Below are positions 3,175 to 40,018 of a DNA stretch of 64,000 nt, piece after piece. Below the pieces are notes generated by a model, which did no database searches, was not told where the DNA came from, and saw only the letters and a list, made by a program, of their open reading frames with translations. Positions within the stretch are counted from its first letter, which is position 1. Each line of letters starts with the position of its first letter. The position numbers and the translations under genes were made by a program. The DNA lies in NCBI GenBank assembly GCA_040414485.1, contig JBEDUK010000010.1, positions 30,147 to 94,146 of the forward strand. Direction: 5' to 3'. This DNA is from Actinomycetota bacterium. GTDB taxonomy: Bacteria > Actinomycetota > UBA4738.

Positions 3175-3339
3175 CGACGCATCGCCGGCATCGTATCCCA
3201 GCTGCCCGCTGCCGGTGGGCCCGTCATGTGTGTTCCGCACACACCTGGCAGCTCGGACGAGATGGTCCCGCCAGTTGCTTCCGCAAAGGGTCAGTGCTAT
3301 ACCGAGCGCCAATCATCGGGGGGAGCAGAGGGAGGTCGA

Positions 3340-4861: not shown

Positions 4862-5046
4862 GCAGGTGATCTCCTCGTCGGCGAACGACCGTCGGCGTGC
4901 TTGGCGGCCGTGGAAGGCAGTCGCGCGCCGGTCCGTGGTCGCGGTCGAGCACGGACTCCTCGCTTCCCGGCGCAACGGGCCGTGGACTACGATGCAGGAG
5001 CGGTATGTGAACTCTGGACACCTCGCAGGCGCGAAAGGACGGCGGC

Positions 5047-6453: not shown

Positions 6454-6484
6454 GTCCAAGAGACGAAGAAGGGAACCGACCCGC

Positions 6485-8833: not shown

Positions 8834-8867
8834 CACCGTCCTTCGCGGGCGCCGTTTCAGCGCTGTG

Positions 8868-9272: not shown

Positions 9273-9601
9273 GGATGTCCTCCTTGGGATCGTCGCCGGC
9301 GACGATCCGGTCAGAGGGAATTCGTCGCGACTGGGCCGAGCCACTGCGCGTCGGGGATCCGTGGAGGTATCCGCGCAATTGACGCGGCCTGCTCTGCGGT
9401 TGTCCGTCTTCGTGGCGCGCACGCGTGGATCCAAGGACCCGGTGGTCGACTGTTTCGCGGATGCGCGGAACCCGGCAATATGTGCGGGGATCAACCGAGG
9501 CTAACAGACACTCGCGGATTCGCCAGCGCCGTGCCCGCCACCCATGGGACCGGCCGTGTCGCCCTCCCGCTAGCATCTGCGTGAGCCGAAGGGGGGCCGG
9601 G

Positions 9602-13488: not shown

Positions 13489-13593
13489 AGCGTACGTCCA
13501 CGCTGGGCCGGCCGACCTCCGGCATCGCCACGTCCACTAGGCTGCGTGCGGTTCCGTATTCGGGTGGCAATCGGGAGGGAGCGACAGCCGGTC

Positions 13594-14949: not shown

Positions 14950-16290
14950 TCAGGACCAGGGGAACGGCGAGTGGCTCACGGGGTGCAGCCTGCCTTCGGC
15001 GTAACGGCTGAACCGGAACGGGTCCAGAAGCGATTGCCGCTCCCCCATCAGCTCCTTCGCCACCAGCGCCCCGACCCCGATCATCTTGTAGCCGTGGTTC
15101 GAGTCGGCGACCACGTGGACGTTGTCGACGAACGTGTCGAAGACCGGGAACGAATCCGGCGTGAACGCGCCGATGCCGCCGCTCGGGGCCTTGTGATACA
15201 CGCCCCGCTTCCCCTCGAACCGCTTCTGGCAGTGCGCGAGCGCGGAGGTCCACATGCGTTCGAAGTCCTCCGTCACGACGTAGTCTTTGGACAGCGGCCC
15301 GTAGGGATCGACCTTGACGTCGTCGGCGGGCAGCGGAACCGTCCACGGCGCCGAGCCGCCCTGCACGCCGTCGAAGTTGAAGTCCGGCTTGTAGTAGATG
15401 CCCCACAGCTCGCCGGTGACCAGCGAGCCGTCGGCGTCGTCGTAGAGCGGCGCGTCGGTGTCCACGTGGATCACCGGCGGCATCCGCCCGTCGTTGGTCT
15501 GGAGATAGTTGGGATCGACGCCGAGCGTCCCCTCCGTGAGGCACCAGTACGTCCACATCGGCCGGTCGTAGGTCTCGCCGTCGCGGCCCATGACGGGGAT
15601 CACGCCGGGCAGGTCCAGCATGTGCCAGAAGTCCCGGACCCACGGGCCGGCGGCGACCACGACCGCGTCGCACGCGATGTCGCCCTGGTCGGTCACGACG
15701 CCGGTGACTGCCCCGCTCGCGTCGCGGTCGAATCCGGCCACGCGAACGGGAGACAGAACCTGGACCCCGAGCGCCCGGCCCTTCTCTGCGAGGCCCGCCA
15801 TGGAGGGCATGTTCTCGGCGTAGCCGCCCCGCTTCTCGTGCAGCACGACCGAGATGTTCTTCGCCTGCCAGTCATGGAACAGATTCTGCATGTAGAGGTG
15901 GCAGTCGGTCTCGCCTTCGACCAGGACTGACTCGTAGCCGATGGCCTGCTGCTGCTCGTGGATCGAAACCACATCCTCGTGCATCACCGCGGGCGCGAGC
16001 TGCATGTAGCCGACCGGGTGGTAGTGGAACGCGGCCGGATCCGACTCCCAGATCGCGACGCTGTGCGCCATCAGCTCTCGCATGGCCGGCTGGAAGTAGT
16101 TGTTCCGAACCACCCCGCACGCCAGGCCCGACGGGCCGGCGCCGATGCCCGTCTTGTCGAGGACGATCACGTCCGCACCGGACCCCGTGCCGCGCGCCTC
16201 CAATTCCTTCGCCAGGTGCCACGCGGTCGACAGGCCGTGGACGCCCGCGCCGATGACCACGTACCGGGCGCTCGACAGAACCGAAGCCAT
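14950..16290 (-). CDS. FAD-dependent oxidoreductase (DAO family; sarcosine/glycine-oxidase-like)
   Basis: N-terminal GxGxxG (YVVIGAGVHGLSTAWHLA) and DAO-fold motifs. It is the last gene of the fhs-gmaS-mgs operon, 30 bp after the VOC gene. Confidence 0.8.
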   Translation of the reverse strand: MASVLSSARYVVIGAGVHGLSTAWHLAKELEARGTGSGADVIVLDKTGIGAGPSGLACGVVRNNYFQPAMRELMAHSVAIWESDPAAFHYHPVGYMQLAPAVMHEDVVSIHEQQQAIGYESVLVEGETDCHLYMQNLFHDWQAKNISVVLHEKRGGYAENMPSMAGLAEKGRALGVQVLSPVRVAGFDRDASGAVTGVVTDQGDIACDAVVVAAGPWVRDFWHMLDLPGVIPVMGRDGETYDRPMWTYWCLTEGTLGVDPNYLQTNDGRMPPVIHVDTDAPLYDDADGSLVTGELWGIYYKPDFNFDGVQGGSAPWTVPLPADDVKVDPYGPLSKDYVVTEDFERMWTSALAHCQKRFEGKRGVYHKAPSGGIGAFTPDSFPVFDTFVDNVHVVADSNHGYKMIGVGALVAKELMGERQSLLDPFRFSRYAEGRLHPVSHSPFPWS

Positions 16291-16320
16291 CAGCGTTCGT
16301 CCTCTCGTCAGGTATCTTTA

Positions 16321-16707
16321 CTAATCGGGATCAGCGTCTGCCCGCGCCGGACAGACGCAGAAATGCGTTCCCTGCGGGTCTCGCATGACGGTCCACCTGA
16401 TGCACCGGGGTTGGCCGCAGCCGGACTCGTTCACCTCCCATGCGACGCTCGCTCCGAGCGACTCCAGACGAGCCACCTCGGCGTCCGGATCGTCCACGCG
16501 GAGGTCCAGATGCACGGGCGTCTTGCCGTCCGGGACGGCGTCGACGCGCTGGATCAGCACCCTGGGCCGGCCGTCGTCGCCGGGTGGGCCGAGAACCGTG
16601 TACGGCTCGCGGGTGTAGAGCACCTCGTACCCGAGCGCCTTCGACCAGAACGCCACCGCGGCATCGGGGTCGACCGCGTCGAGCGTGACCTCGATCGAGG
16701 CGGTCAT
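16321..16707 (-). CDS. VOC (glyoxalase/bleomycin-resistance/dioxygenase) family protein
   Basis: MTASIEVTLDAVDPDAAVAFWSKALGYE... is a typical glyoxalase-like fold start. 23 bp downstream of the preceding gene. Confidence 0.7.
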   Translation of the reverse strand: MTASIEVTLDAVDPDAAVAFWSKALGYEVLYTREPYTVLGPPGDDGRPRVLIQRVDAVPDGKTPVHLDLRVDDPDAEVARLESLGASVAWEVNESGCGQPRCIRWTVMRDPQGTHFCVCPARADADPD

Positions 16708-16730
16708 GCTGCGCCGGCCGGTCGCGGCTT

Positions 16731-17165
16731 CTAGTGGCCCGAGGGCTTCTCCCAGCCCTCGAGCACGGCCGGGTGGTAATCGGTCCCCACCGTCTCCGAA
16801 TCCTCGACCCACGGCCCGAGCAACGGCTGCGGAAACTTCGCGTACTGCTGCTTCAGCCGGATCCCGTAGGAGTTCCCGCTCACCAGATGCTTCATCAGCA
16901 CCTTGCGGGCCATCTCGTCCCGGCGCCCGTCCGGGATGTCGAAGTAGATCTTGAGGAAGGAGTTCGAATAGCGGTCGAAGACGGCCGGCACGCCGTCCTC
17001 CTCCAGCAGGTGCACGTCCTCAAGCCAGTTCAGGTCCTCGCCGGGCGTGAGCGCCAGCAGGTCGACATCGTCCAGGAGCGAGATGTCCTCCTGGTACGGG
17101 AACCGCTGCCCGGCCAGTTCCTCCGCGTCGATCCCGATCTTGGTCGAAAGGTGCGGCTCGGTCAT
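16731..17165 (-). CDS. hypothetical acidic protein (144 aa), co-operonic with N-methylglutamate synthase genes
   Basis: Clean ORF 13 bp downstream of the mgsC stop. No recognisable domain. Confidence 0.5.
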   Translation of the reverse strand: MTEPHLSTKIGIDAEELAGQRFPYQEDISLLDDVDLLALTPGEDLNWLEDVHLLEEDGVPAVFDRYSNSFLKIYFDIPDGRRDEMARKVLMKHLVSGNSYGIRLKQQYAKFPQPLLGPWVEDSETVGTDYHPAVLEGWEKPSGH

Positions 17166-17178
17166 GGCCTGCCCCCTC

Positions 17179-18582
17179 TCATCCCTGGCCCTGGTCGGCC
17201 AGGTACTTCTCGAGCATGCCCTTGATCTCGCCGAGCGTGCGATCCTCCGACACGCCCGGGATGTAATCGGTCCCGGCGAGCGGCACCTTGGCCATGGCGG
17301 CAGCCTCGACGGTGAGCGCGCACAGGTCCTCGGGCTCCAGCGAGTGGACGTCTGTCTTCCCGCACGCGCGGGCGAGCATCTGCAGCTCCATGGTCATCGC
17401 GGTGAGGAAGTTGTAGACGCGGTTCGCGGCCTCGTCGACCTTGAGCCGCTTGCGGAGTTCCGGGTCCTGCGTGGCCACGCCGACCGGGCACCGTCCCGTG
17501 TGGCAGTGATAGCACTGGCCGGCGGGCACCCCGACCGTGCCCTCGTAGTCCGTGACGCCGGGGATCTCCTTGTTGCAGTTCAGCGCCATGAGGGCCGAAT
17601 GCCCGATGGCGACCGCCTTCGCGCCGAGCGCCAGGGCCTTGGCGACGTCCGCGCCGTTGCGGATCCCACCGGCAACGACCAGATCGACCTCGTCGGCCAG
17701 CCCGACGTCCTCCAGCGCGCGGCGCGCCTCGGGGATGGCCGCCATCAGCGGGATGCCCGTCTCCTCGGTGGCGATGTGCGGTCCGGCGCCGGTGGAGCCC
17801 TCGGCCCCGTCGAGGTAGATGATGTCCGGCCCGCACTTCGCCGCCATACGAACGTCGTCGTAGACGCGCGCCGCGCCGAGCTTCAACTGGATCGGGATCC
17901 GGTAGTCGGTGGCCTCGCGGATCTCCTGCACCTTCAGCGAAAGGTCGTCGGGGCCGAGCCAGTCCGGATGCCGTGCCGGCGAGCGCTGGTCGATCCCGGC
18001 GGGGAGCGAACGCATCTCCGCGACCTGTTCGGTCACCTTCTGTCCCATCAGGTGGCCGCCGAGCCCGACCTTGCAGCCCTGCCCGATGAAGAACTCGCAT
18101 CCGTCGGCGAGCATCAGGTGATGCGGGTTGAACCCGTACCGGCTCTGGATGCACTGGTAGTACCACTTGATCGACAGGTCCCGTTCGGGCGGGATCATGC
18201 CGCCCTCGCCCGAGCAGGTCGCCGTCCCAGCCATGGACGCCCCCTTCGCCAGGGCCATCTTCGCCTCCAGCGACAGCGCCCCGAACGACATACCGGTGAT
18301 GTAGATCGGGATGTCGAGCTCAAGCGGATTCTTCGCGAACCGCGCGCCGAGGACCGTCTTCGTCTCGCATTTCTCTCTGTAGCCCTCGATCACGAAGCGC
18401 GTGAGCGTACCCGGAAGGAACATCAATTCGTCCCAATGCGGGATCGGCTTGAACATGGAGAAACCGCGCATGCGGTATCGGCCAAGCTCGGCTTTCACGT
18501 GGATGTCGTTGATCACATCCGCCGTGAAGATCTGGCTGCGCCCGAGGACGTTCCTCCTGGTTGGCGCGTCTTCGACGGCCAT
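17179..18582 (-). CDS. mgsC: FMN-binding glutamate-synthase family protein (GltB central domain); N-methylglutamate synthase subunit C-like
   Basis: GltS FMN-domain motifs (IYITGMSFGALS, GEGG, VVAGGIRNGADVAKALALGA) and the Cys cluster for a 3Fe-4S (CYHCHTGRCP). Synteny with GATase-II and GXGXG genes. Confidence 0.8.
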   Translation of the reverse strand: MAVEDAPTRRNVLGRSQIFTADVINDIHVKAELGRYRMRGFSMFKPIPHWDELMFLPGTLTRFVIEGYREKCETKTVLGARFAKNPLELDIPIYITGMSFGALSLEAKMALAKGASMAGTATCSGEGGMIPPERDLSIKWYYQCIQSRYGFNPHHLMLADGCEFFIGQGCKVGLGGHLMGQKVTEQVAEMRSLPAGIDQRSPARHPDWLGPDDLSLKVQEIREATDYRIPIQLKLGAARVYDDVRMAAKCGPDIIYLDGAEGSTGAGPHIATEETGIPLMAAIPEARRALEDVGLADEVDLVVAGGIRNGADVAKALALGAKAVAIGHSALMALNCNKEIPGVTDYEGTVGVPAGQCYHCHTGRCPVGVATQDPELRKRLKVDEAANRVYNFLTAMTMELQMLARACGKTDVHSLEPEDLCALTVEAAAMAKVPLAGTDYIPGVSEDRTLGEIKGMLEKYLADQGQG

Positions 18583-18602
18583 CGGCTGCTCGCCCCCTCT
18601 CC

Positions 18603-19460
18603 CTAGTGGATCACGAGCTTGCGCTCGGATGGCTCGAGGCTGTCGTAGTTGTACAGGACCTTTCCGCACACGAACTTCTGGAACTCGGGCGGCGTGCCCA
18701 GGCCGTAGATGCGGAATTTCCGCTCGATCAATTCGGTGTCGGCGTCGCTCCAGTCGCCGGGGACACAGTCGATCCCGAGCGATTTCACCCTTCCTGCGAC
18801 GTAGATCTCGCCGTCGTACATGGAGTCACCAAGGCCCGGCCCCGCGTCACCGCAGATGATCTGGCGCCCCCGCTGCATCATGAACCCGGTCATGGAACCG
18901 ACGTCGCCGCAGACGACGATCGTGCCGCCCTTCTGATCGATCCCGGTCCGCGCGCCGGCCTGGCCCTTGATCACCAGGTCGCCGCCGCGGAACGCCGCGC
19001 CGGCCAGCGACCCCGCGTTCTTCTCGATCACGACGACTCCGGACATCATGTTCTCGCAGACGGACCAGCCGACCCGGCCGGTGACGGTGATCTCCGGCCC
19101 GTCGATCAGGCCGAGGCCGAAGTATCCGAGCGAGCCTTCGAACCGGATCCTGCAGCGTCGCAGAATGCCGACGCCGATCGAATGCTTCGCACCCGGATTG
19201 AGGACCGTGACGTCGTCGATCCCCTGCTCGTACAGAAGCCAGCGGAGTTCGAGGTTGATCTGGCGGATCGTGAGGCCCGCCGCGTTGAAGGTCGCCTTCG
19301 ACACCGCCTCGTCGATCTCGGAGATCTTCGGGACCTCCGCGATCGGCTCGGCCAGGCCGCGCGCGTCATACGTGATCCGCCGCCCACCGCTCGTTCGTGC
19401 GGGGGCTACGCTCCGCTGCGCTTCGCTACTCGAGCCCCCGAACCCCGTTACCGTGTCCAT
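18603..19460 (-). CDS. mgsB: GXGXG-motif protein (glutamate synthase alpha C-terminal-domain-like); N-methylglutamate synthase subunit B-like
   Basis: Repeated GxGxG motifs (RGGDLVIKGQAGARTGIDQKGGTIVVCGDVGSMTGFMMQRGRQIICGDAGPGLGDSM). ATG at 19460. Confidence 0.8.
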   Translation of the reverse strand: MDTVTGFGGSSSEAQRSVAPARTSGGRRITYDARGLAEPIAEVPKISEIDEAVSKATFNAAGLTIRQINLELRWLLYEQGIDDVTVLNPGAKHSIGVGILRRCRIRFEGSLGYFGLGLIDGPEITVTGRVGWSVCENMMSGVVVIEKNAGSLAGAAFRGGDLVIKGQAGARTGIDQKGGTIVVCGDVGSMTGFMMQRGRQIICGDAGPGLGDSMYDGEIYVAGRVKSLGIDCVPGDWSDADTELIERKFRIYGLGTPPEFQKFVCGKVLYNYDSLEPSERKLVIH

Positions 19461-20377
19461 ACCAGCACCTCGCGCTCGTACGGGTCGTACGTGTCGATCT
19501 CGCGGTCGATGATGGCCCGGATCGCGACCTCCTCGGACGCCATCGCGACCAGGTTGTCGGATTCGTACAGGACCAGCGGCTTCGCGGCCATCTCGTCCTT
19601 GGCCACACCCAACGAGTCGACCGTGACCGCCAGGTACGTGAACACGCCGTCCAGGTCGTCCAGGGACTGTTTCATCGCGGTCTCCAGGTCGTAGCCCTCC
19701 TGGAGCTTCTCGGCCAGGTACACCGCGATGATCTCGGAGTCGCACTCGGACTGGAACCGGTGGCCGCTGCGCTCCAGGCGGCGGCGCCATTGGAAGTAGT
19801 TCGTCAACTGGCCGTTGTGGACCACCGCCACGTCGCTGAACGGGTAGGCCCAGTACGGATGGGCGCCCGAGATGTCGACGTCGGATTCCGTGGCCATCCG
19901 GACGTGCCCGATGCCGTGCGTGCCTCGGAATCCGCCCAGGTTGTACTGCTGCGACACCTCCTCCGCGTCGCCGAGGTCCTTGACGATCTCCAGCGAATGG
20001 CCGAGCGAGAGGACCTCACAGCCGGGGACGTCCTCGATGTAGTCCGCCAGCGCCTTGAGGTCACCGTCGTACCGGACGACCGCCCGGTACGCATAGTCCG
20101 TCTCGCGGTCCACCCGGTCGACGGTGCCGCCGATCTTCGCCAGGCGTGCCTCGACCTCCAGGCGGTGGCGCTCCAGGCGTTCCCTGAACTCGAAGTCCCG
20201 GCGGTCGTTCGCGTCCGCGAGCTTGAAGCGGATCACGACGTGGTCGGACGGCGGCCCGTAGAGCGCGTAGCCGGTCGAGTCAGGCCCGCGGTGCTTCATG
20301 GCCTGGAGCATCGCCGTGATCTCGTTGCCGATCTCGCCCTCGCCGTCGCGATGGATGACGCCCGCGATGCCGCACAT
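19448..20377 (-). CDS. mgsA: class-II glutamine amidotransferase domain protein; N-methylglutamate synthase subunit A-like
   Basis: N-terminal MCGIAGV (Cys2 nucleophile after Met removal) and GATase-2 fold. Its stop overlaps the mgsB start. Confidence 0.8.
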   Translation of the reverse strand: MCGIAGVIHRDGEGEIGNEITAMLQAMKHRGPDSTGYALYGPPSDHVVIRFKLADANDRRDFEFRERLERHRLEVEARLAKIGGTVDRVDRETDYAYRAVVRYDGDLKALADYIEDVPGCEVLSLGHSLEIVKDLGDAEEVSQQYNLGGFRGTHGIGHVRMATESDVDISGAHPYWAYPFSDVAVVHNGQLTNYFQWRRRLERSGHRFQSECDSEIIAVYLAEKLQEGYDLETAMKQSLDDLDGVFTYLAVTVDSLGVAKDEMAAKPLVLYESDNLVAMASEEVAIRAIIDREIDTYDPYEREVLVWTR

Positions 20378-20403
20378 GGCCCGCCCCTTCCTGCCTTCGT
20401 CCC

Positions 20404-21801
20404 TTACGGGAGGATGTCCAAGTACTCCTTGATGTCCCAGTCGCTCACCGTGGAGATGAACCGGATCCATTCGTCCCGCTTGTAGTGCATGAACACGCGG
20501 TACATGTCCCCCGGCATCGCCGACCGCACGACCTCGTCGGCTTCCAGCGCGTCGAGCGCCTCGCCCAGCGTGGTCGGGATCCGTTCGACGGTCTTGCCCT
20601 CGGCGATGGCCTCGTAGATGTTGCGCTCCTCCGGCGGTCCGGGGTCGAGCTTGCGGTCGATGCCGTCGCGCATGACCTTCAGCAGCGCCGCGAACGACAG
20701 ATAGGGGTTCACCGCCGAGTCGACGCTGCGGTACTCGTAGCGGCCGGGCGCGCTGATCCGCAGGGCTGTCGTCCGGTTCTGGAACCCCCAGTCGGCGAAG
20801 ATCGGCGCCCAGAACCCGGCGTCGGCGAACCGGCGGTACGAGTTCACCGTCGGTGCCGTGATGCACGTCAGGGCTCGAAGGTGATCCAGCACGCCGCCGA
20901 TCGCGTACAGACCGACCTGGCCGGGCAGCCGCGGGTTGTCGCCGTCGGGGAGGAACTTGTTCGTGTCGCCCTCCCACAGCGAGATGTTGTGGTGGCACCC
21001 GTTCGCCGACACGCCCATGAACGGCTTCGGCATGAAGCAGGCGAACGCGTTCATCTCGCGACCGACCTGCCGGCAGATCTGGCGGTAGGTGGTCAACCGG
21101 TCCGCGGTGGCTTCGGCCTTGTCGAACATGAAGTTCAGCTCCAACTGGCCGGGCGCGTCCTCGTGGTCCCCCTGGATCATGTCCAGCCCCATCGCCCGGC
21201 CGTACTCCATGACCTTGTGGATGATGGGCTGCAGCTCGGAGAACTGGTCGATGTGGTAGCAGTACGGCTTCGTCTTGCCCTCGACCGACGGCGAGCCGTC
21301 GGGGTTGACCTTCAGCCACATCATCTCGGGCTCGGTGCCGGCCCTCAGGTGCAGGCCGGTCGCGGCCGTGAACTCGTCGTGGATCCGCTTCAGGTTCCCG
21401 CGACAGTCGGAGGTGAGGTAACCCCCACCGTCCTCCTCCTCCTCGCGGCCGCGGAACAGCGTGCAGAACACCCGGGCGGTCTTGCGGTCCCACGGAAGGA
21501 CGCAGAACGTCTCGGGCTCGGGCAGGCCGACCAGCTCACGCGCCTCCGGCCCGTAGCCGATGTACTCGCCGTTGCGGTCGACGAACAGGTTCGCCGTGGA
21601 GCCGTAGACCAGCTGGAACCCCCTGGCGGCGATGTTCTCCCAGTGCGCCGCCGGGATGCCCTTGCCCATGATGCGGCCGGTCACCGACACGAACTGGTAG
21701 TACATGTAGTCGACGCCCTCGGCGTCGATCTGCTTGCGGACCTCCTTGATGGCGTCCGCCCGCCCCTCCTGCGACACGAACCGTTCGAGATCCGACGTCA
21801 C
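20404..21801 (-). CDS. gmaS: glutamine-synthetase family protein, gamma-glutamylmethylamide synthetase (GmaS)-like
   Basis: GS catalytic-domain motifs (beta-grasp N-domain, ...CHHNISLW...). Located directly upstream of mgsABC as in N-methylglutamate-pathway clusters. GTG start with a GGAGGGGGG RBS. Confidence 0.75.
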   Translation of the reverse strand: MTSDLERFVSQEGRADAIKEVRKQIDAEGVDYMYYQFVSVTGRIMGKGIPAAHWENIAARGFQLVYGSTANLFVDRNGEYIGYGPEARELVGLPEPETFCVLPWDRKTARVFCTLFRGREEEEDGGGYLTSDCRGNLKRIHDEFTAATGLHLRAGTEPEMMWLKVNPDGSPSVEGKTKPYCYHIDQFSELQPIIHKVMEYGRAMGLDMIQGDHEDAPGQLELNFMFDKAEATADRLTTYRQICRQVGREMNAFACFMPKPFMGVSANGCHHNISLWEGDTNKFLPDGDNPRLPGQVGLYAIGGVLDHLRALTCITAPTVNSYRRFADAGFWAPIFADWGFQNRTTALRISAPGRYEYRSVDSAVNPYLSFAALLKVMRDGIDRKLDPGPPEERNIYEAIAEGKTVERIPTTLGEALDALEADEVVRSAMPGDMYRVFMHYKRDEWIRFISTVSDWDIKEYLDILP

Positions 21802-21826
21802 CCTCGCCCCCCTCCGACGCGATGTC

Positions 21827-23500
21827 TTAGAACAGCCCCACGATGCGTCCGTCCGCATCGATGTCGACCTTGGTGAACGCCGGATCCCTCCCGAGGCCCG
21901 GCATCCGCTGCATGTCGCCGCACAGCGCGACGACGAATCCGGCACCGGCACTTGGAACGACCCCCCTGACCGGCAGCCGAAATCCCCGTGGGCGGTTCAG
22001 CAGGGTCTGATCGTGCGAGAGTGAGAGGTGGCTCTTCGCCATGCAGACCGGCACCTTGCCGAACCCGAGCGCCTCCATCCGTTCGATGTCCCGCTCCGCC
22101 TGCGGGAGGTAGTCCACGCCGTCGGCGCCGTACACGCGTGTGGCGATCGCCTCGATCTGCTCCTTCACCGGCGTCCCGTCCGGCGTCAAGCGGGCGAAGC
22201 TGTTCGGCTGCTTCACCGCGTCGAGGACCGCCTCGGCGAGCTCGACCGCGCCGTCGCCGCCGCGCGAGAAACCGTCGTTCAGCACGACGCGTTCGGCGCC
22301 GACCTCGGTCGCCAGCTCGTCCACCAGCCGGAGCTCCTCGTCCGTGTCGGTCGGGAAGCGGTTGATCCCGACGACGCACGGGATGCCGTACTGCTTCACG
22401 ATCTCGATGCACGCGGCGAGGTTCTCCGAGCCCCGTTTCACCGCGTCCAGGTCCCCGTTTCCGAGGTCGTTGAACGCCACGCCTCCGTGGGACTTGAGCG
22501 CCCGCACGGTGGCCACCAGCACCGCCGCGCTCGGAGCGAAACCGCCTGCGCGGCAGACGATGTCGCAGAACTTCTGGAACCCGAGGTCGGCGGCGAACCC
22601 GGCCTCGGTCACGACGATGTCCGCGAGCTTCAGCGCCACCCGGTCCTCGATGATCGAGTTGTTCGCGTGCGCGATGTTGCCGAACGGCCCCGCATGGATC
22701 AGCACCGGCTGTCCCTCGAGCGTCTGCACGAGATTCGGCTTGACGGCTTCCTTCATGATGGCGGCCATCGCTCCGGCCACTCGCAGGTCCTCCGCCGTCA
22801 CCGGCGTACCGTCGGCCGTCTCGGCCACCACGATCCGCCCGAGCCGTGCGCGAAGGTCGGCCAGGTCGGATGCCAGCGCCAGCACGGCCATGATCTCCGA
22901 CGCCGCGGTGATCACGAAGTGGTCGTCACGCGGCACCCCGTGCATCTTCCCGCCCAGGCCGTCGGTGACGTTGCGGAGCTGCCGGTCGTTCACATCCAGC
23001 GTGCGCGGCCACGTGATCGACTCCAGCGTGATCCCGAGCGGGTTTCCGTGGAAGATCGATGCGTCCATCGCGGCGGACAGCAGGTTGTGCGCCGCGGTGA
23101 TCGCGTGGAAGTCGCCCGTGAAATGGAGGTTGATCTCCTCCATGGGCACGACCTGCGCGTACCCGCCGCCCGTCCCGCCGCCCTTGATGCCGAACACCGG
23201 GCCCATCGACGGCTCTCGCAGGCAGAGCATCACGTTCGCGCCGAGTTTGCCCAGGCCCTGGGTCAAGCCGACGGACGTCGTTGTCTTGCCCTCGCCGGCC
23301 TTGGTCGGCGTGATGGCCGTGGTGATGACGATCTTGCCGTCGGGGCGGTCGCCCAGGCGTTCCAGCACCCGCGCGGCGTCGACCTTCGCCTTCGACCTGC
23401 CGTAGGGCTCGAGCTCGTCCGGGAGCAGGCCGGCATCGCGGCCGACGTCCTCGATCGGACGCAGGACGGCTTCCTGCGCGATCTCGAGGCCCGACTTCAT
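21827..23500 (-). CDS. fhs: formate--tetrahydrofolate ligase
   Basis: Strong FTHFS signature (PTKAGEGKTTTSVGL, GGGYAQVVPMEEINLHFTGDFHAI, HAGPFGNIAHG-like). Confidence 0.9.
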   Translation of the reverse strand: MKSGLEIAQEAVLRPIEDVGRDAGLLPDELEPYGRSKAKVDAARVLERLGDRPDGKIVITTAITPTKAGEGKTTTSVGLTQGLGKLGANVMLCLREPSMGPVFGIKGGGTGGGYAQVVPMEEINLHFTGDFHAITAAHNLLSAAMDASIFHGNPLGITLESITWPRTLDVNDRQLRNVTDGLGGKMHGVPRDDHFVITAASEIMAVLALASDLADLRARLGRIVVAETADGTPVTAEDLRVAGAMAAIMKEAVKPNLVQTLEGQPVLIHAGPFGNIAHANNSIIEDRVALKLADIVVTEAGFAADLGFQKFCDIVCRAGGFAPSAAVLVATVRALKSHGGVAFNDLGNGDLDAVKRGSENLAACIEIVKQYGIPCVVGINRFPTDTDEELRLVDELATEVGAERVVLNDGFSRGGDGAVELAEAVLDAVKQPNSFARLTPDGTPVKEQIEAIATRVYGADGVDYLPQAERDIERMEALGFGKVPVCMAKSHLSLSHDQTLLNRPRGFRLPVRGVVPSAGAGFVVALCGDMQRMPGLGRDPAFTKVDIDADGRIVGLF

Positions 23501-23602
23501 GCCACCGCCGGCGTGGGTCCCATGGAGGCGACAGACTACTCCGGCGGCCGGTGCGACGGACGAGTCGCGGCACGTCGGGCCGCCACAACTTCGAACGCCC
23601 CG

Positions 23603-23686
23603 ATGTGTGGGAAGTGGACAGGTCTCGCTCGCCAACCTGCGGGCTGAGGCGCGCGGCGCGCCGGAGGCATGTGTTCGAAGTGGACA
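23603..23686. promoter_or_regulatory. two copies of an 18-bp motif ATGTGTnnGAAGTGGACA in the divergent fhs / soxD intergenic region (candidate operator sites)
   Basis: Copy 1 at 23603-23620 (atgtgtgggaagtggaca). Copy 2 at 23669-23686 (atgtgttcgaagtggaca). 66 bp apart, inside the 328-bp divergent promoter region. Confidence 0.3.
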
Positions 23687-23828
23687 CGAGCGTCCAATGG
23701 AGACGGGTCCCTTCGCACCCGGCGCCCGGCGTGCAGGCGCCCGGGCGCGGCGGTAAGGTCGGCCCTGCGAGCGGCGGGCTCGCCACGTCGGGGAGCGAGG
23801 ACGAAGGGGCGCGGGAGGGCCCATCCCG

Positions 23829-24098
23829 ATGACGTTCCAGATCCGGTGTCCGAACTGCGGGCTGCGCGACGCCGAGGAGTTCGCCTACGGAGGCGAATCG
23901 ACCACCCGCCCTGGACCCGACGGCAGCGGACAGGACCTCGCCCGCTACGTGTACTTCCGCGAGAACCTCGACGGCTGGCAGACCGAATGGTGGTTCCATC
24001 GCGACGGCTGCCAGAGGTGGTTCGTTGCCGAACGGCACACCATGACGAACGAGATCCGCGCCACCTCCTGGCCGCCCGCGCGCGCGGAGACCCGATGA
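23829..24098 (+). CDS. soxD: sarcosine oxidase delta subunit family protein (SoxD / MgdB-like)
   Basis: MTFQIRCPNCGLRDAEEFAYGGE... is the canonical SoxD N-terminus. Its stop overlaps the next start (ATGA). Confidence 0.85.
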   Translation: MTFQIRCPNCGLRDAEEFAYGGESTTRPGPDGSGQDLARYVYFRENLDGWQTEWWFHRDGCQRWFVAERHTMTNEIRATSWPPARAETR

Positions 24099-27001
24099 CG
24101 GCGGAACGGACGGCGTCGCCGGGGCCGCACGAGACGATCGACCGCGGTGCGGGCGTCACCTTCATGCTCGACGGCAGGCGAATGCGGGGATACGCCGGCG
24201 ACACGGTCGGATCGGCCATGGCCGCGGCCGGCGTGACGATCACCGGCCGGTCGTTCAAGTACCACCGGCCCCGCGGCCTGATGTGCATGGCTGGCGCCTG
24301 CCCCAACTGCCTGGTCCGGATCGACGGCGTGCCGAACGTCCGCGCCTGCTCCGAACTGCTCCGAGACGGGATGAAGGTCGAGCGCCAGAACGGCCGGCCG
24401 AACGTCGAGCGGGACGTGACCGGGATCGTCGATCGCTTCTCCTTCGCCCTCCCCGCGGGCTTCTACTACAAGGTCTTCCACCGGCCGAAGTGGGCATGGC
24501 CGCGGGTGGAGCCGATGATCCGGCGCCTCTCGGGGCTCGGCGTCGTTCCCGACGAGCCGGACCACGGCGAGAAGGAACGGGTGAGCCTCCATCCGGACGT
24601 GCTGGTGGTGGGCGCCGGGGCGGCGGGACTCTGCGCCGCGGTCGAGGCGGCCCGCGCCGGAGCGACGACCGTCCTTCTGGAGGAGCGGGGCGAGATCGGC
24701 GGCGCGCTGCTGTATTCGACCGAGTGGGCGGCCGATCCGTTCGCCACAGCCGGCGCCGGCGGGGCGGCATCGGAGAGCCTTCCCGGACCCGCGCTGGCCA
24801 CGCGCCTCTCGGCGTCCGCGGACGTTGCCGGCGTCCGAATCCTGGGCGGGACGCCGGCGTTCGGCGTGTTCGACGGTCCGCTGATCGCCGCGGCTTCGGA
24901 GAACGCGCTCTACCGGATCCGCCCGGCCCGCACGATCTTCGCCACGGGCGCCGTCGAACAACCGGCGGTCTTTCCGGACAACGACCTGCCCGGCGTGATC
25001 CTCGGCGGCGCGGCCGACCGCCTCCTCAACCGCTTCGGCATCCTCCCGGGAAGGCGGGTCGTGGTGCTGGCATCGGGCCCTGCGGCCTATCGGACGGCGT
25101 CCTCGCTCGCGGCCGCCGGCGCGCAGGTCACCGTGGTCGATCCCGACCCGGGTGCCGCGGCATCGAAGGTCGCCGGCGTGACGGTGAAGGCCGGCAGCAC
25201 CATCCGCCGCGCGATCGGCAGGCGCCACGTCACCGCCGTCGAGGTCGGCCACCCGGACGAGTCCGGTTCGAAGCTCGACTGCGACCTCGTGGTCGTCGCG
25301 GGCCACGCGTCGCCCACCACCAACCTGCTGGCGCAGGCCGGGGCGACGATCGAATGGGACCAGGACGCCGGCGCGTTCCTCGCAACCGGCCTCCCCGCCG
25401 GCGTCTTCGCGGCCGGCGAGGTCACCTGCGTCCGCGACCTGGAATCGGCGATCGTGCAGGGACGGCTTGCCGGCCTCGAGGCCGCGCGTTCGCTCGGTCT
25501 GGGAGATGCACGGACCGAGGCGGCCGTCGCAGCCCTTCGCGCACAGGCTCCGTCGGGACCCCAGGAGGCGACGCTTCCGCCGGCGCGCATCCCGGCGGAC
25601 GGCAAGCAGTTCGCCTGCGTCTGCATGGACGTGACCTACAAGGAGCTGCGCTTCGCCGTGAAGGAGGGGTTCGATTCGATCGAGCTCCTGAAGCGCTACA
25701 CCACGCTGTCGATGGGGCCGTGTCAGGGCAAGTCGTGCCTGTCGGCGTCGATCCGTCTGTGCGCGCTGGCAACCCACCGAAGCATCGAGGAGACCGGTGC
25801 GCCGACGGCGCGTCCGCCGTGGGTGGGCGTCCCCATGTCCGTCCTCGCCGGCGAGGAGCTCGTTCCCCGCCGGGAGAGCGCCATGCAGGACCTTCACGCC
25901 GACCTCGGGGCCACGTTCATGTGGGCGGGCGACTGGCGCCGCCCCCATCACTACATCGAGCCGGCGGCCGAGGCCCGCACCGTGCACCAATCGGTCGGCG
26001 TGATCGACGTCAGCACGCTCGGAAAGGTGCGGGTGAAGGGTCCGGACGCGGCGGCGTTCCTGGAGCGTCTCTATCCGAACATGTACGCCGACCTTGCGGT
26101 GGGGCGCGTCCGCTACGGAGTCATGTTGAACGACTCGGGCGTCATCCTGGACGACGGCACGATCGTCAGGCTGGCTGACGATGAGTACTTCGTCACGACG
26201 ACCACGGGCAACGCGGCGTCGATGATCCGGTGGATGGAGTGGTGGCTGGCCGTGTGGCAGATGGACGTGCTCATGGCGAACGTCAGCTCCCAGTTCGCGG
26301 CGATCAACGTCACCGGTCCGCGGTCGCGCGAGGTCATGTCGCGGCTGACCGAGCTGGATGTCTCGGCGGAGGGCATGCCGTACCTTCGGGCCGCGCAGGC
26401 CGAGGTCGCCGGCGTGCCCGCGCTGATCCTCCGGATCGGGTTCACCGGCGAGCTCGGGTTCGAGCTCCACGTGCCGGCGGCGTACGGGCAGTACCTCTGG
26501 CAGGAGATCCTCGGCGCCGGCCAGGCCGCGGGGATCCCGGTGCAGCCGTTCGGCCTGGAGGCGCAGCGGATCCTTCGGCTCGAGAAGCAGCACATCCTCG
26601 TGGGGCAGGACACCGACGCGCTGTCGGACCCCTACGGCGTGGGCATGCCGTGGATCGTGAAGATGGCGAAGCCGGACTTCCTCGGACGGCGGGCCCTGGC
26701 CGAGATGGCCAACGGGGACGCGGCGCCGTCGCCCGCCGACCGCCTGGTCGGGTGGGCGGCGCCGGGAACCGTCGTGCCGCCGGAGGGCGCCGGGATCGTG
26801 CAGGGAGGCACCTGGGTCGGGCGGGTCACCTCGGCTCGCCGCAGCGACGCCGTCGGGAGCGTGATCGGGATGGGCTGGGTGCCGGCGTCGCTCGCCGAGG
26901 AGAACCGGGAGATCTCGATCCATTTCGGCGGGCAGACGCTCGCCGCGAACGTTCGCCTGAAGCCCTTCTACGACCCCGAGGGCGCGAGGCTCCGGTCATG
27001 A
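24095..27001 (+). CDS. soxA: sarcosine oxidase alpha subunit family protein (SoxA / MgdC-like)
   Basis: 969 aa. N-terminal 2Fe-2S-like and NAD/FAD-binding regions (DVLVVGAGAAGLCAAVEAARAG) and a C-terminal GcvT-like folate domain (GFTGELGFELH). Confidence 0.9.
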   Translation: MTAERTASPGPHETIDRGAGVTFMLDGRRMRGYAGDTVGSAMAAAGVTITGRSFKYHRPRGLMCMAGACPNCLVRIDGVPNVRACSELLRDGMKVERQNGRPNVERDVTGIVDRFSFALPAGFYYKVFHRPKWAWPRVEPMIRRLSGLGVVPDEPDHGEKERVSLHPDVLVVGAGAAGLCAAVEAARAGATTVLLEERGEIGGALLYSTEWAADPFATAGAGGAASESLPGPALATRLSASADVAGVRILGGTPAFGVFDGPLIAAASENALYRIRPARTIFATGAVEQPAVFPDNDLPGVILGGAADRLLNRFGILPGRRVVVLASGPAAYRTASSLAAAGAQVTVVDPDPGAAASKVAGVTVKAGSTIRRAIGRRHVTAVEVGHPDESGSKLDCDLVVVAGHASPTTNLLAQAGATIEWDQDAGAFLATGLPAGVFAAGEVTCVRDLESAIVQGRLAGLEAARSLGLGDARTEAAVAALRAQAPSGPQEATLPPARIPADGKQFACVCMDVTYKELRFAVKEGFDSIELLKRYTTLSMGPCQGKSCLSASIRLCALATHRSIEETGAPTARPPWVGVPMSVLAGEELVPRRESAMQDLHADLGATFMWAGDWRRPHHYIEPAAEARTVHQSVGVIDVSTLGKVRVKGPDAAAFLERLYPNMYADLAVGRVRYGVMLNDSGVILDDGTIVRLADDEYFVTTTTGNAASMIRWMEWWLAVWQMDVLMANVSSQFAAINVTGPRSREVMSRLTELDVSAEGMPYLRAAQAEVAGVPALILRIGFTGELGFELHVPAAYGQYLWQEILGAGQAAGIPVQPFGLEAQRILRLEKQHILVGQDTDALSDPYGVGMPWIVKMAKPDFLGRRALAEMANGDAAPSPADRLVGWAAPGTVVPPEGAGIVQGGTWVGRVTSARRSDAVGSVIGMGWVPASLAEENREISIHFGGQTLAANVRLKPFYDPEGARLRS

Positions 27002-27714
27002 GCGACGCCGCCGCAGTGGCGACCTTCGAGCCGGTCATGCGTTCGCCGCTGCACCGTGCGCACGAGCGGCTCGGGGCCACGTTCGGGCGGGACGGCGAGT
27101 GGGAGTACCCGGCGGCCTACGCGGGCGAAACCGGCGAGGCCGGCCTCCGGGCCGTCGCCGAGGGGGTCGGCGTGGCCGACGTCACCGCCCGGGGAAAGGT
27201 GGATCTCCGCGGCGCGATCGGCGACCTGTTCGCGCGGATCGCCAGGACCAGCGAGGGGTGGGAGCCGGGGACCATCGTCCCCATCGAACCGGCGCCGTCC
27301 GAGGAGCATCCGGGACTGATCGCCCCGATCTCCGACCGCTGGGCGATCCTGTTCTGCCCGCCGGCATCGCTCGACACACGGATGGAGGAACTGGACCGGC
27401 CGGCCGGCGGCGCCTCGGCCATGGTCACCGAGATCTCGTCGCAGTACGTGGGCGTCGCCCTGACCGGACCGAGGACGTTCGATCTGCTGGAGCGCCTCAC
27501 CGCATTCGACCTGCGCGAACTGGAGCCTGACGCGTGCGTCGCCACGAGAGCGCTGGAACTGACCGCGATCATGCTGCGGCGCGGGCCGGTCGTCGAACTG
27601 TGGGTCAGCGCGTCCTCGGCGCGGTACGCGTGGGAGACGGTTCTGCACGCGGGGGCGCGCCTGGGCGCGGCGCCGGTCGGCCGGGACGCGCTGTCGACGC
27701 TGGGGTGGTGGTGA
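26998..27714 (+). CDS. soxG: sarcosine oxidase gamma subunit family protein (SoxG / MgdD-like)
   Basis: Start ATGA-overlaps the soxA stop. Size (238 aa) and position are consistent with SoxG. Confidence 0.75.
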   Translation: MSDAAAVATFEPVMRSPLHRAHERLGATFGRDGEWEYPAAYAGETGEAGLRAVAEGVGVADVTARGKVDLRGAIGDLFARIARTSEGWEPGTIVPIEPAPSEEHPGLIAPISDRWAILFCPPASLDTRMEELDRPAGGASAMVTEISSQYVGVALTGPRTFDLLERLTAFDLRELEPDACVATRALELTAIMLRRGPVVELWVSASSARYAWETVLHAGARLGAAPVGRDALSTLGWW

Positions 27715-27719
27715 GCGGG

Positions 27720-28943
27720 ATGCCCGCACCGATCGGACCCCGCTACTTCAAGCCCTGGAAGATGTGGCGCCGGCACGACCTGAAGCCGTCGTACGACTGC
27801 GTGATCGTGGGCGGCGGCGTCCACGGCCTGGGCATCGCCTACGAGATGGCGAAGCGCGGCTTCAAGAACGTCGCGGTCCTGGACCAGTCGTACATCGGCG
27901 CGGGCGGCAGCGGGCGGAACACCACGATCATCCGCGCGAACTACCGGACACCCGAGGGCGTTGCGTTCTACCGCGAGTCGCTTCGGCTCTACAAGCACCT
28001 GGGTCAGGAGCTCGACTACAACCTGCTGCTGTCCGAACAGGGCCACCTGACCCTCGCTCACAACGAACGCGGCGTCATCACGATGCACGAGCGCGCGGAG
28101 GTCAACAAGACGCTCGGCGTGGACAGCCGCGTGATCTACGCGGAGGAGATCCGCGGGCTCTGCTCGTGGCTGGACCTCTCGGACAAGCCGCCGTTCCCGA
28201 TCATGGCGGCGCTGTTCCACCCGCCGGGCGCGGTGCTCCGCCATGACGCCGTCGTGTGGGCGTACGCGCGGGCGGCCGACCGGCTCGGCGTGGAGATCCA
28301 TCCGTACACCCAGGTGACGGGCATTCACGTCGACGGCGGCAAGGTCACCGGCGTCCGCACCCCGCAGGGCGACATCGCCACCCCGATGGTGATCGGCGCG
28401 GTGGCCGGCTGGTCGAGCGAACTGGCCAGGATGGCGGGGGTCGAACTGCCGATCACCACGCATGTGCTGCAGGCGTTCGTCACCGAACCCCTGAAGCCGT
28501 TCCTGCACACGATCATCGTGTCGGGAACCCTGCACGTGTACATCTCGCAGACCGACCGGGGCGAGGTGCTGATCGGCTCCGAGATCGAGCCGTACACGAC
28601 CTACAACCAGGGCTCGACGCTCACCTTCCTGGAGGCGACCACCGCGCATTCGCTCGACCTCATCCCGGCGCTGGGCCGCGTGAAGGTGATGCGGTCGTGG
28701 GGCGGCCTGTGCGACATGACGCCGGACTACTCACCGATCATGGGAGTCACATCCGTCGAAGGGTTCCTGCTCGACTGCGGCTGGGGCACGTACGGCTTCA
28801 AGGCAGCCCCGATCAGCGCGGTGACCATGGCCGAACTGGCCGTGACTGGGAAGGTCCCCGACCTGATCGCGCCGTTCGAACTGGAGCGCTTCTGGCGCCG
28901 GCAGCCGGTGAGCGAGATCGCCGCCGCCGCCGTCTCGCACTGA
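27720..28943 (+). CDS. soxB: sarcosine oxidase beta subunit family protein (SoxB / MgdA-like), FAD-dependent
   Basis: CVIVGGGVHGLGIAYEMAKRG (FAD binding) and the covalent-FMN region typical of SoxB. Confidence 0.9.
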   Translation: MPAPIGPRYFKPWKMWRRHDLKPSYDCVIVGGGVHGLGIAYEMAKRGFKNVAVLDQSYIGAGGSGRNTTIIRANYRTPEGVAFYRESLRLYKHLGQELDYNLLLSEQGHLTLAHNERGVITMHERAEVNKTLGVDSRVIYAEEIRGLCSWLDLSDKPPFPIMAALFHPPGAVLRHDAVVWAYARAADRLGVEIHPYTQVTGIHVDGGKVTGVRTPQGDIATPMVIGAVAGWSSELARMAGVELPITTHVLQAFVTEPLKPFLHTIIVSGTLHVYISQTDRGEVLIGSEIEPYTTYNQGSTLTFLEATTAHSLDLIPALGRVKVMRSWGGLCDMTPDYSPIMGVTSVEGFLLDCGWGTYGFKAAPISAVTMAELAVTGKVPDLIAPFELERFWRRQPVSEIAAAAVSH

Positions 28944-31064: not shown

Positions 31065-31074
31065 TGGAGGCGAC

Positions 31075-39190: not shown

Positions 39191-39202
39191 GGCCCCATCC
39201 TC

Positions 39203-40009: not shown

Positions 40010-40018
40010 GTCTGTCGT

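Follow-up and report, generated by a model that had tools for sequence, protein, structure and literature searches.

A divergent lineage of N-methylglutamate-pathway-like genes with an orphan fifth gene in a probable methylated-amine catabolic island of an uncultured actinobacterium

Introduction

Two divergent operons in a 64-kb stretch of DNA from an uncultured actinobacterium (contig JBEDUK010000010.1 of GenBank assembly GCA_040414485.1; hereafter the window) encode relatives of the N-methylglutamate (NMG) pathway of methylamine oxidation. The minus-strand operon carries fhs, a ligase with the glutamine synthetase (GS) fold, a triad of glutamate-synthase-type subunits (GATase-II, GXGXG and FMN-GltS), a 144-residue orphan protein (orf144), a VOC protein and a DAO-family flavoprotein. 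The plus-strand operon carries a four-subunit enzyme of the sarcosine oxidase type, SoxDAGB. The sequence comparisons reported here indicate that this region is probably the core of a methylated-amine catabolic island of about 34 kb that runs a variant of the NMG route. What is new is a distinct and widespread gene lineage. Its fifth gene is an invariant orphan, its ligase belongs to a separate clade, its most frequent oxidase neighbour is not the four-subunit enzyme, and a partner operon joins the trimethylamine N-oxide (TMAO) demethylase Tdm to acyl-CoA-dehydrogenase (ACAD)-family and PhyH-family proteins.

Methylated amines are important sources of carbon and nitrogen and precursors of climate-active gases. 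To follow the bacteria that consume them, gmaS, tmm and tdm are used as markers, which were built on proteobacterial sequences. The module is too divergent for the thresholds of these markers. If it works as proposed, a large guild of bacteria that use methylamine and TMAO escapes current surveys.

Results and discussion

Gene content and layout

Genes were called as open reading frames filtered by third-position GC content, together with their translations. Domains were assigned with Pfam and subfamilies with curated NCBIfam cut-offs. GC content is uniformly high along the window (0.65-0.73; about 0.69 overall). This value and the relatives described below support an origin in Actinomycetota.

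The original prediction described two divergent operons with a 328-bp shared region, and the region between fhs and soxD measures exactly that length (Table 1). All eight genes of the minus-strand operon were recovered from open reading frames and Pfam in the predicted order, with no gap above 30 bp: from fhs to DAO the gaps are 25, 26, -13 (an overlap), 20, 13, 23 and 30 bp. The D-A-G-B order of the sox genes was likewise recovered, with ATGA overlaps at the D/A and A/G junctions, but at G/B the predicted overlap is a 5-bp gap. The genes of the predicted island, 14950-28943, are all present; the island itself is larger, spanning about 0.3-34 kb of the window.

The triad is homologous to MgsABC and is accompanied by an invariant orphan

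Alignments of the GATase-II, GXGXG and FMN-GltS subunits with the MgsA, MgsB and MgsC proteins of Paracoccus aminophilus pAMI6 and Aquabacterium olei pTB101 cover the whole length of each protein. Identities are 31-36% between GATase-II and MgsA, 37-39% between GXGXG and MgsB, and 54% between FMN-GltS and MgsC. GATase-II keeps the N-terminal Cys, at position 2 (MCGI). The ligase-A-B-C gene order is the same as in Aquabacterium and on a plasmid of Streptomyces sp. N50, and it is also found in Mycobacterium clusters (PMC5023230). Two features are lineage-specific: an N-terminal extension of about 55 residues on the GXGXG subunit and a C-terminal tail of about 25 residues on FMN-GltS.

When one genome per species was scanned, at least 593 sites matched the module. 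Synteny statistics were taken from the best 80 of these at least 593 loci, within 10 kb on either side, and percentages from the 47 loci with the full 20 kb. Among the 80 loci listed, all were named as uncultured Actinomycetota except one 'Chloroflexi' bin and one 'bacterium' bin. Hosts among the matches listed included Gaiellales, Solirubrobacterales, other Thermoleophilia, and Acidimicrobiia, among them the sponge-associated Ca. Poriferisodalis. Gaiellales and Solirubrobacterales are among the most abundant lineages in soil. The order GS-GATase-GXGXG-FMN-orf144 was kept on one strand in every locus long enough to show it, and each of the five genes was present in 98-100% of the 47 loci.

Directly after FMN-GltS stood orf144 in 47/47 loci. 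Its mean identity was 76%, as high as that of the catalytic subunits, and its divergence correlated with that of FMN-GltS (r = 0.61) and not with that of the ligase (r = 0.12). Homologues of orf144 filled 7886 metagenomic protein clusters at the 90% level, nearly all called 'hypothetical' and typically about 80% identical; clusters at the 50% level formed essentially one family. The protein has no Pfam domain and no detectable family or fold. As predicted, orf144 lies outside the described pathway, together with VOC and DAO: it had no match in 72,556 plasmids, 257 of which carried MgsC-like genes. Its invariant position, its conservation, its co-divergence with FMN-GltS and the lineage-specific extensions on the partner subunits lead us to propose that orf144 is a lineage-specific accessory subunit of the GATase/GXGXG/FMN complex.

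Apparent FMN-GltS-orf144 fusions among the 50% representatives (P0127, P0132, P0172 and P0192), at first sight evidence of the Rosetta-stone kind, were rejected as frameshift or gene-call artefacts, since their linkers are out of frame. A distant orf144 subfamily of about 42% identity, low in GC and rich in Lys (P0261, P0262, P0265 and P0268; loci L003-L005), was also seen. It conserves the motifs DLNWLED and PAVFDR and lies on contigs of at most 1.4 kb, on which the module is not visible.

The ligase has the active site of an amine ligase

The ligase matched Pfam Gln-synt_C with 287 bits. Among Protein Data Bank (PDB) structures, glutamate-methylamine ligase 9qur ranked first (224 bits), ahead of GSI-alpha enzymes (about 208) and Rhodovulum GmaS (186). 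We read the active site by alignment to Rhodovulum GmaS (RhGmaS), with the residue roles established for GmaS and GS (PMC7948447). The residues by which GS handles ammonium are lost: Asp50' is replaced by Val and the flap Glu (Glu327 in E. coli) by Trp. All nine catalytic and methylamine-pocket residues of RhGmaS are kept, among them Lys30', Tyr147, Gln175, Glu179, Asn188 and the catalytic Asp177, Glu186 and Arg312, as are the equivalents of E122, E124, E179, E186, H235, R288, R312, R317, E325 and R327. Two substitutions were noted, G231 to Ala and H237 to Asn. Because the ammonium residues are replaced and the GmaS catalytic and pocket residues are kept, the active site marks the ligase as an enzyme that gamma-glutamylates amines, distinct from glutamine synthetase. 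Placement with GlnA or PuuA had been named as the outcome that would undo the pathway assignment; active-site residues and tree set the ligase apart from both.

The module recurs with C1 genes in relatives

Among cultured organisms, Carbonactinospora thermoautotrophica (L100; GCA_026614415.1, PQID01000009.1) carries the five-gene module including orf144. Its ligase is 80%, its FMN subunit 91% and its orf144 69% identical to those of the window. The module there lies back to back with soxB-soxD-soxA-soxG-fhs-fchA-like-folD, and an XRE/cupin regulator is nearby; the cluster is predicted to encode a complete N-methyl-to-formate route. No DAO homologue was found within 10 kb of the module. C. thermoautotrophica is a CO/H2-oxidising thermophile and a ready experimental system.

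The locus L002 repeats the layout of the window, and sox genes accompany the module in lineages far apart from one another (the window, L002, L025, L034, L079 and C. thermoautotrophica). Two further loci, L010 (3754-5124) and L011 (about 1973-3300), carry a canonical GmaS, divergently oriented from the module and 45-49% identical to the enzymes of M. mays and Rhodovulum. These two relatives also carry a second permease, and in them two different gamma-glutamyl ligases stand side by side. Together with the fhs, Sox, Tdm and formate dehydrogenase (FDH) genes inside the window and the frequency of Tdm beside the module, C. thermoautotrophica and L010/L011 make a methylamine or C1 function far likelier than any other.

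Oxidative enzymes: SoxDAGB and DAO

SoxDAGB keeps the hallmarks of its family, with four subunits, a folate-binding GcvT domain in the alpha subunit and the Cys3His residues in the delta subunit. SoxB has a His aligned with the covalent FMN-attachment site of the beta subunit of the heterotetrameric sarcosine oxidase TSOX. The N-terminus of SoxA (24095-24400) adds a four-Cys Fer2_4 domain (CMAGACPNC...RAC), where neither TSOX nor Paracoccus alpha has a Cys, and the match to TSOX alpha begins only at residue 144. The SoxA of C. thermoautotrophica has the same domain. This extra, predicted 2Fe-2S centre suggests that SoxDAGB is a dehydrogenase rather than an oxidase.

DAO was the commonest neighbour of the module, lying within 10 kb in 31/47 loci (66%); its gene follows orf144 or else precedes the ligase gene in divergent orientation. 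It is 27-29% identical to SoxB proteins, and only across the N-terminal, FAD-binding half; its automatic JGI name is 'methylglutamate dehydrogenase subunit A'. A predicted structure from a shallow alignment reached a predicted local distance difference test (pLDDT) score of 53, too poor for a fold search. By identity to the window proteins the relatives fell into two subtypes, in ligase (about 77 versus 52%), GATase (76 versus 69%) and DAO (63 versus 54%), while GXGXG, FMN-GltS and orf144 were constant between them. This co-variation, measured against one reference sequence and confounded by phylogeny, suggests that ligase, GATase and DAO set specificity on a constant GXGXG/FMN/orf144 chassis.

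The VOC gene was present in 11% of loci. The co-occurrence with mgs-like genes that the original prediction proposed to check is thus invariable for orf144, frequent for DAO and rare for VOC. In L095 the gene call merges VOC and a C26 gamma-glutamyl hydrolase into a single product. Genes for such a hydrolase, 30.5% identical to E. coli PuuD, lie between orf144 and VOC in L002, L095, L096 and L097; none was found in the window.

Evidence against a canonical assignment, and alternative explanations

Several results weigh against reading the module as the canonical NMG pathway. The first group concerns the ligase and the triad. The top NCBIfam model of the ligase, TIGR03105 (glnT/GmaS, 'type III glutamate-ammonia ligase'), scored 312.6, below its cut-off of 469.6. 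The ligase is 31-34% identical to GmaS of M. mays, Rhodovulum, Paracoccus and Aquabacterium. FMN-GltS shows the same 54% identity to all canonical MgsC proteins, also to those encoded on Methylobacterium plasmids, whereas canonical MgsC proteins are 70-74% identical between Streptomyces sp. N50 and Proteobacteria. Published identity cut-offs for calling NMG genes in Proteobacteria (gmaS >40%, mgsC >81%, mgdC >35%; PMC5023228) were reached by none of the window proteins; these cut-offs were defined against M. extorquens PA1, and the window proteins were compared with homologues from other species. Because of the MgsC identities and the unreached cut-offs, the module is a separate and deeper lineage and not simply the actinobacterial orthologue of the NMG genes. 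The predicted NMG signature of triad, GS homologue and Sox thus stands as full-length MgsABC homology, but not as membership of the canonical families by cut-off or identity threshold.

Tree and gene context pointed the same way. The ligase tree was built by neighbour joining on Kimura distances (32 sequences, 200 bootstraps), and its support values are approximate, with undefined distances for a few saturated pairs. Canonical GmaS formed a clade in 196/200 bootstraps, and the window clade joined the Ipu and actinobacterial alkylamine ligases in 199/200; a group of the window clade with canonical GmaS that excluded those ligases appeared in 0/200. By this placement the ligase is outside the GmaS clade, in a sister clade. 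Its nearest cultured homologues (45-52% identical) are plasmid-borne and come from Ruegeria, Paracoccus sp. TOH, Rhodococcus opacus and Streptomyces clavuligerus. Three of the four stand among genes for P450/ferredoxin, aldehyde dehydrogenase and gamma-glutamyl hydrolase, an alkylamine context like that of Puu pathways and of Ipu-type isopropylamine clusters; the S. clavuligerus record is unannotated. Like the window ligase, the homologues from Ipu/Puu contexts carry the pocket residues, nine additional residues in the Asp50' loop and a flap that is shorter by five residues. Since they too carry the pocket residues, these residues do not specify methylamine. Moreover, where a canonical GmaS adjoins the module, as in L010 and L011, the ligase of the module itself may act on another small amine. 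The predicted identity of the GS homologue with GmaS therefore holds for the type of active site but not for the family, given the missed cut-off, the low identity and the grouping with Ipu/Puu-type ligases.

These results raise the alternative of a route like those of the Puu and Ipu systems. The ligase would form a gamma-glutamyl amide of methylamine, dimethylamine (DMA) or another small amine, and a PuuB-like DAO would oxidise the N-alkyl group directly. The products would be formaldehyde and either glutamine or a lower amide. The amide nitrogen would return to glutamate through the C26 hydrolase found in relatives, through the triad working as a split glutamate synthase, or through both, and Sox would be a separate add-on. 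Besides the plasmid contexts of the ligase homologues, the alternative draws on the commonness of DAO near the module and on Sox being rare there: within 10 kb, soxA was found in 4% and a soxB-like gene in 15% of loci, a further point against the NMG assignment. Accordingly, the original prediction's link between module and four-subunit Sox does not generalise. The co-variation of ligase, GATase and DAO on an unchanged chassis would also fit, although it comes from one reference and is confounded by phylogeny. The PuuD-like C26 hydrolase of many relatives appears to fit Puu-like logic better than the NMG scheme, but its gene is missing from the window. Direct oxidation would in addition fill the missing DMA step. 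On the other side, the similarity of DAO to PuuB is marginal (a 55-residue match), the triad is homologous to MgsABC, whose role in NMG formation is supported by proteobacterial genetics (references in PMC5023230), and C. thermoautotrophica combines the module with soxBDAG without a nearby DAO. We consider the Puu/Ipu-like explanation unlikely, and favour the variant NMG route.

The second group concerns the Sox proteins. All four fell below the cut-offs of NCBIfam models TIGR01372-01375 (soxA 769.6/1164, soxB 423.9/529, soxD 83.3/116.5, soxG 15.8/144). SoxB was 42% identical to the beta subunit of Corynebacterium TSOX, against 40% for the mgd-type beta subunit of Paracoccus; SoxA was 33% identical to the Paracoccus mgd-type alpha subunit. 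With SoxB identities of 42 versus 40%, sequence does not decide between sarcosine and N-methylglutamate as the substrate, and synteny favours the NMG reading. SoxDAGB could thus be a true sarcosine oxidase or dehydrogenase serving glycine-betaine, creatine or sarcosine breakdown, a neighbour of the module only through a shared feed into tetrahydrofolate (THF) and Fhs. The slightly higher identity to the crystallised Corynebacterium enzyme, the retained FMN-attachment His and delta Cys3His, the absence of Sox near the module in most relatives, and GcvT and Lpd genes at 59.9-62.5 kb of the window favour such a role. What speaks against it is the recurrence of the module-Sox pairing in distant lineages, the N-terminal four-Cys ferredoxin-like domain that sets SoxA apart from TSOX, and the failure of all four subunits to reach the sox cut-offs. 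Pfam surveys also revealed no betaine, dimethylglycine or creatine gene in the window. The distinction from a true sarcosine oxidase that the original prediction implies is not supported by the sequences, which do not tell the two apart. A sarcosine enzyme seems to us quite improbable.

Finally, an ordinary ammonia-assimilating GS with a split archaeal-type glutamate synthase and no link to amines, suggested by the domain content (Gln-synt_C, GATase-II, GXGXG and FMN-GltS, formally GS and glutamate synthase), by archaeal and Gram-positive GSI-alpha structures that score nearly as well as GmaS (208 versus 224 bits) and by the automatic annotation of the ligase as 'glutamine synthetase', is essentially excluded by the replaced ammonium-binding and deprotonating residues (PMC7948447) and by the Tdm, fhs, Sox and FDH genes among which the cluster is embedded.

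The surrounding island

A second set of genes, on the plus strand at 2537-10456, points to TMAO. The top NCBIfam model of the APC-family permease was the TMAO permease (196 bits, under the 690 cut-off), and the permease adjoins the module in 38% of related loci. Tdm passed its equivalog cut-off (NF053776; 1202.2 bits against 1100) and has the DUF1989 + GcvT architecture; in the window it lies 6 kb from the module. Together with its ACAD-like partner it lay within 10 kb of the module in 32% of the 47 loci. Between relatives the ACAD-like protein keeps 80-88% identity, and its gene invariably stands beside that of Tdm; the PhyH gene follows Tdm in L095, L096, L097 and L002, and the flavin reductase-cNMP gene follows DAO in the same four loci. 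The PucR-type regulator is directly upstream of the GS-like gene in L095 and L096. The permease/ACAD/Tdm/PhyH set, the flavin reductase gene and the regulator all form part of the neighbourhood conserved around the module.

A Pfam survey of the main open reading frames of the island brought out no gene of the Tmm type (flavin monooxygenase) or the DmmDABC type. Because the survey held no known trimethylamine (TMA) or DMA monooxygenase domains, the genes of the permease/ACAD/Tdm/PhyH set and the flavin reductase gene are candidates for undescribed TMA and DMA steps. The more specific idea that ACAD-like protein and flavin reductase form a two-component TMA N-oxygenase was set aside as speculation: the top PDB matches of the ACAD-like protein were ordinary ACADs (125 bits), and the N-oxygenase DnmZ reached only 48 bits.

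Other genes of the window were noted in passing. A DUF1254/DUF1214 protein is encoded at 13546-14922 (+), between flavin reductase and DAO and convergent with DAO across a 27-bp gap; it was not seen at the equivalent position in the inspected gene lists of L002 and L095-L097. A Suf set for Fe-S cluster assembly (SufB/D, a SufC-like ABC ATPase, SufS, a NifU-like protein and a Rieske protein) occupies 37486-49204, and GcvT and a dihydrolipoyl-dehydrogenase-like gene lie at 59899-62491. The sole Rfam match in the window was an ordinary cobalamin riboswitch at 53304-53523 (-; 75.9 bits), upstream of a periplasmic binding-protein gene (52204-53244).

C1 steps

Fhs passed its equivalog cut-off (NF010030; 774.5 bits against 652), and its gene is the first of the module's operon. 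No folD homologue was detected in the 64-kb window (tblastn with E. coli FolD, best E 0.73) or, by the same search, in the 80 related loci. The chain from methylamine to CO2 is thus not complete in cis: of the contiguous methylamine-to-CO2 module that had been predicted, fhs within the operon and an FDH downstream were confirmed, but the folD step is missing from the window.

The FDH is a three-gene NAD-type enzyme (29109-33947) downstream of soxB. It is unusually split: the Fe-S domains with which a normal FdhA begins are encoded here by a third gene of their own, after the NuoE/F-like gene. The catalytic subunit is probably a selenocysteine enzyme in an actinobacterium, to judge from its in-frame TGA. 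This codon falls inside a conserved motif (SCNRT-U-HAPSVVGL) and is directly followed on its 3' side by a hairpin of -22.2 kcal/mol whose loop reads GGUCU. A full-length SECIS_3 match after the TGA was weak (17.6 bits, E 0.23 in a 301-nt search), and no tRNA-Sec or sel genes were found within the window.

The control region between fhs and soxD

The fhs/soxD intergenic region holds two matches to TGTCCACTTCnnACACAT, 66 bp apart, where chance would give 0.19. In the related locus L002 one copy is conserved at 100%, within a flank of only about 50% identity. The repeats are a possible common operator for the island. A weaker TGTCCACTTCnnACACAT-like site lies at 4988-5004, just upstream of the ACAD-like gene, and a similar site was seen upstream of the ACAD homologue in the related locus L064. 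Rfam gave no riboswitch or RNA element within the 328 bp, and sigma-70 promoter and terminator scans were uninformative in such high-GC DNA.

Table 1. Genes and control region of the probable island, with window coordinates and the searches that identified them
Feature	Coordinates	Strand	Evidence
PucR-type regulator	266-2206	-	Pfam GAF, GGDEF_2, HTH_30
APC-family permease, TMAO-permease-like; true start maybe further downstream	2537-4861	+	Pfam AA_permease_2
ACAD-family flavoprotein	5047-6453	+	Pfam
TMAO demethylase (Tdm)	6485-8833	+	Pfam DUF1989 + GcvT; NCBIfam NF053776
PhyH-family Fe(II)/2-oxoglutarate dioxygenase	9425-10456	+	Pfam
Flavin reductase fused to cNMP-binding domain	12487-13488	-	Pfam
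DAO, stand-alone flavoprotein, distantly SoxB/MgdA-like	14950-16290	-	Pfam DAO
VOC protein	16321-16707	-	Pfam Glyoxalase_6
orf144, acidic 144-residue orphan protein	16731-17165	-	no Pfam family
FMN-GltS, glutamate-synthase-type subunit, MgsC-like	17179-18582	-	Pfam Glu_synthase
GXGXG subunit, MgsB-like	18603-19460	-	Pfam GXGXG
GATase-II, class-II (Ntn) amidotransferase subunit, MgsA-like	19448-20377	-	Pfam GATase_6/7
GS-fold glutamate-alkylamine ligase (GmaS-like function, separate clade), GTG start	20404-21801	-	Pfam Gln-synt_C
fhs, formate-tetrahydrofolate ligase	21827-23500	-	Pfam FTHFS; NCBIfam NF010030
Divergent control region, two copies of TGTCCACTTCnnACACAT at 23603-23620 and 23669-23686	23501-23828		repeat scan
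soxD, delta subunit	23829-24098	+	Pfam SoxD
soxA, alpha subunit	24095-27001	+	Pfam Fer2_4 + SO_alpha_A3 + GCV_T
soxG, gamma subunit	26998-27714	+	Pfam GCV_T
soxB, beta flavoprotein subunit	27720-28943	+	Pfam DAO
Molybdopterin FDH catalytic subunit, in-frame TGA 29364-29366	29109-31064	+	domain/NCBIfam searches
NuoE/NuoF-type diaphorase subunit of FDH	31075-32961	+	domain searches
FDH Fe-S subunit: Fer2_4, 2x4Fe-4S, Molybdop_Fe4S4	32958-33947	+	domain searches

Proposed route

In the variant NMG route that we favour, TMAO would enter through the APC permease and would be split by Tdm, whose family membership is clear, into DMA and a C1 unit on THF. The step from DMA to methylamine is a gap in the scheme, for which the ACAD-like protein with the flavin reductase, PhyH and DAO are candidates. 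The ligase would then spend ATP to attach methylamine, or some other very small alkylamine, to glutamate at the gamma-carboxyl group; its active-site residues indicate the type of reaction, and the substrate is suggested by context. The GATase-II/GXGXG/FMN complex, with orf144, would convert the gamma-glutamyl amide to N-methylglutamate, as its homologue MgsABC does. SoxDAGB would release glutamate and 5,10-methylene-THF by oxidative demethylation. A FolD encoded elsewhere and then Fhs would yield formate with a gain of ATP, and the predicted selenocysteine, NAD-type FDH would oxidise formate to CO2. DAO may be a second N-methyl oxidase that acts on an intermediate of the module; it probably replaces Sox in most relatives. 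Whether by SoxDAGB, DAO or both, the demethylation would give glutamate and methylene-THF or formaldehyde.

A bolder combination can be tentatively put forward, though we think it improbable. Here orf144 would be an obligatory new subunit of a distinct actinobacterial complex that resembles glutamate synthase and transfers methylamine, and ligase, GATase and DAO, with the C26 hydrolase and VOC of relatives, would form a branch that oxidises gamma-glutamyl-(di)methylamide directly. It would supply the step from DMA to methylamine in bacteria that showed no Tmm or DmmDABC gene close to the module. If such a direct-oxidation branch exists, Gaiellales, Solirubrobacterales and sponge Acidimicrobiia would be major unrecognised sinks of TMAO and methylamine, with a chemistry that is undescribed. 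A defined question follows for the variant NMG route as well: what a 144-residue orphan, conserved about as well as the catalytic subunits, does in a glutamate-synthase-type complex, with C. thermoautotrophica as a cultured host.

Comparison with known systems

The closest described system is the set of proteobacterial NMG genes gmaS-mgsABC-mgdABCD, known from Methyloversatilis universalis FAM5, Methylocella silvestris and Methylobacterium extorquens PA1; in our comparisons Paracoccus aminophilus pAMI6 and Aquabacterium olei pTB101 represent it. Both systems place a ligase without the ammonia-site residues beside three separate subunits and use a four-subunit Sox with a folate domain, and the homology is full-length. 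The window differs in the 9-residue Asp50'-loop insertion and 5-residue flap deletion of its ligase, in orf144 and the extensions on the B and C subunits, in the D-A-G-B order and the Fer2_4 domain of SoxA, and in having DAO and VOC within the operon.

NMG genes in a high-GC Gram-positive bacterium, which the original prediction pointed out, are not new, because gma-mgsABC and mgdABCD were proposed in Mycobacterium sp. 141/155 from genomics only (McTaggart et al. 2015, PMC5023230). Our literature search on the module in Actinomycetota, Gaiellales, Poriferisodalis and C. thermoautotrophica found nothing beyond that paper. The mycobacterial clusters share with the window the high-GC Gram-positive host, the ligase-A-B-C order and the context of a methylotrophy island. 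The window lineage is probably distinct from them, judged through the one cultured actinomycete cluster of canonical type that was inspected, on a plasmid of Streptomyces sp. N50, because this cluster lacks orf144 and is close to the proteobacterial genes.

What the module has in common with E. coli PuuA/PuuB/PuuD and the Ipu clusters is a GS-fold ligase that spends ATP on gamma-glutamylation, together with an oxidase of the DAO family and, in relatives, a C26 gamma-glutamyl hydrolase. It differs in that PuuA is 25% identical to the ligase, DAO matches PuuB over 55 residues, and the Puu and Ipu systems are without a triad or folate-linked genes. In comparison with heterotetrameric TSOX (Corynebacterium sp. 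U-96, 1VRQ; Stenotrophomonas, 2GAG), SoxDAGB has the same four subunits, FMN-site His, Cys3His delta and GcvT domain in alpha; the ferredoxin-like N-terminus of SoxA, the gene order and the amine/C1 context, in place of a betaine/creatine context, are different. Lastly, the Tdm of Methylocella silvestris and that of the window have the same DUF1989 + GcvT architecture, and the window enzyme passes the equivalog cut-off; in the window, however placed, its partners are the ACAD-family flavoprotein and the PhyH-family dioxygenase.

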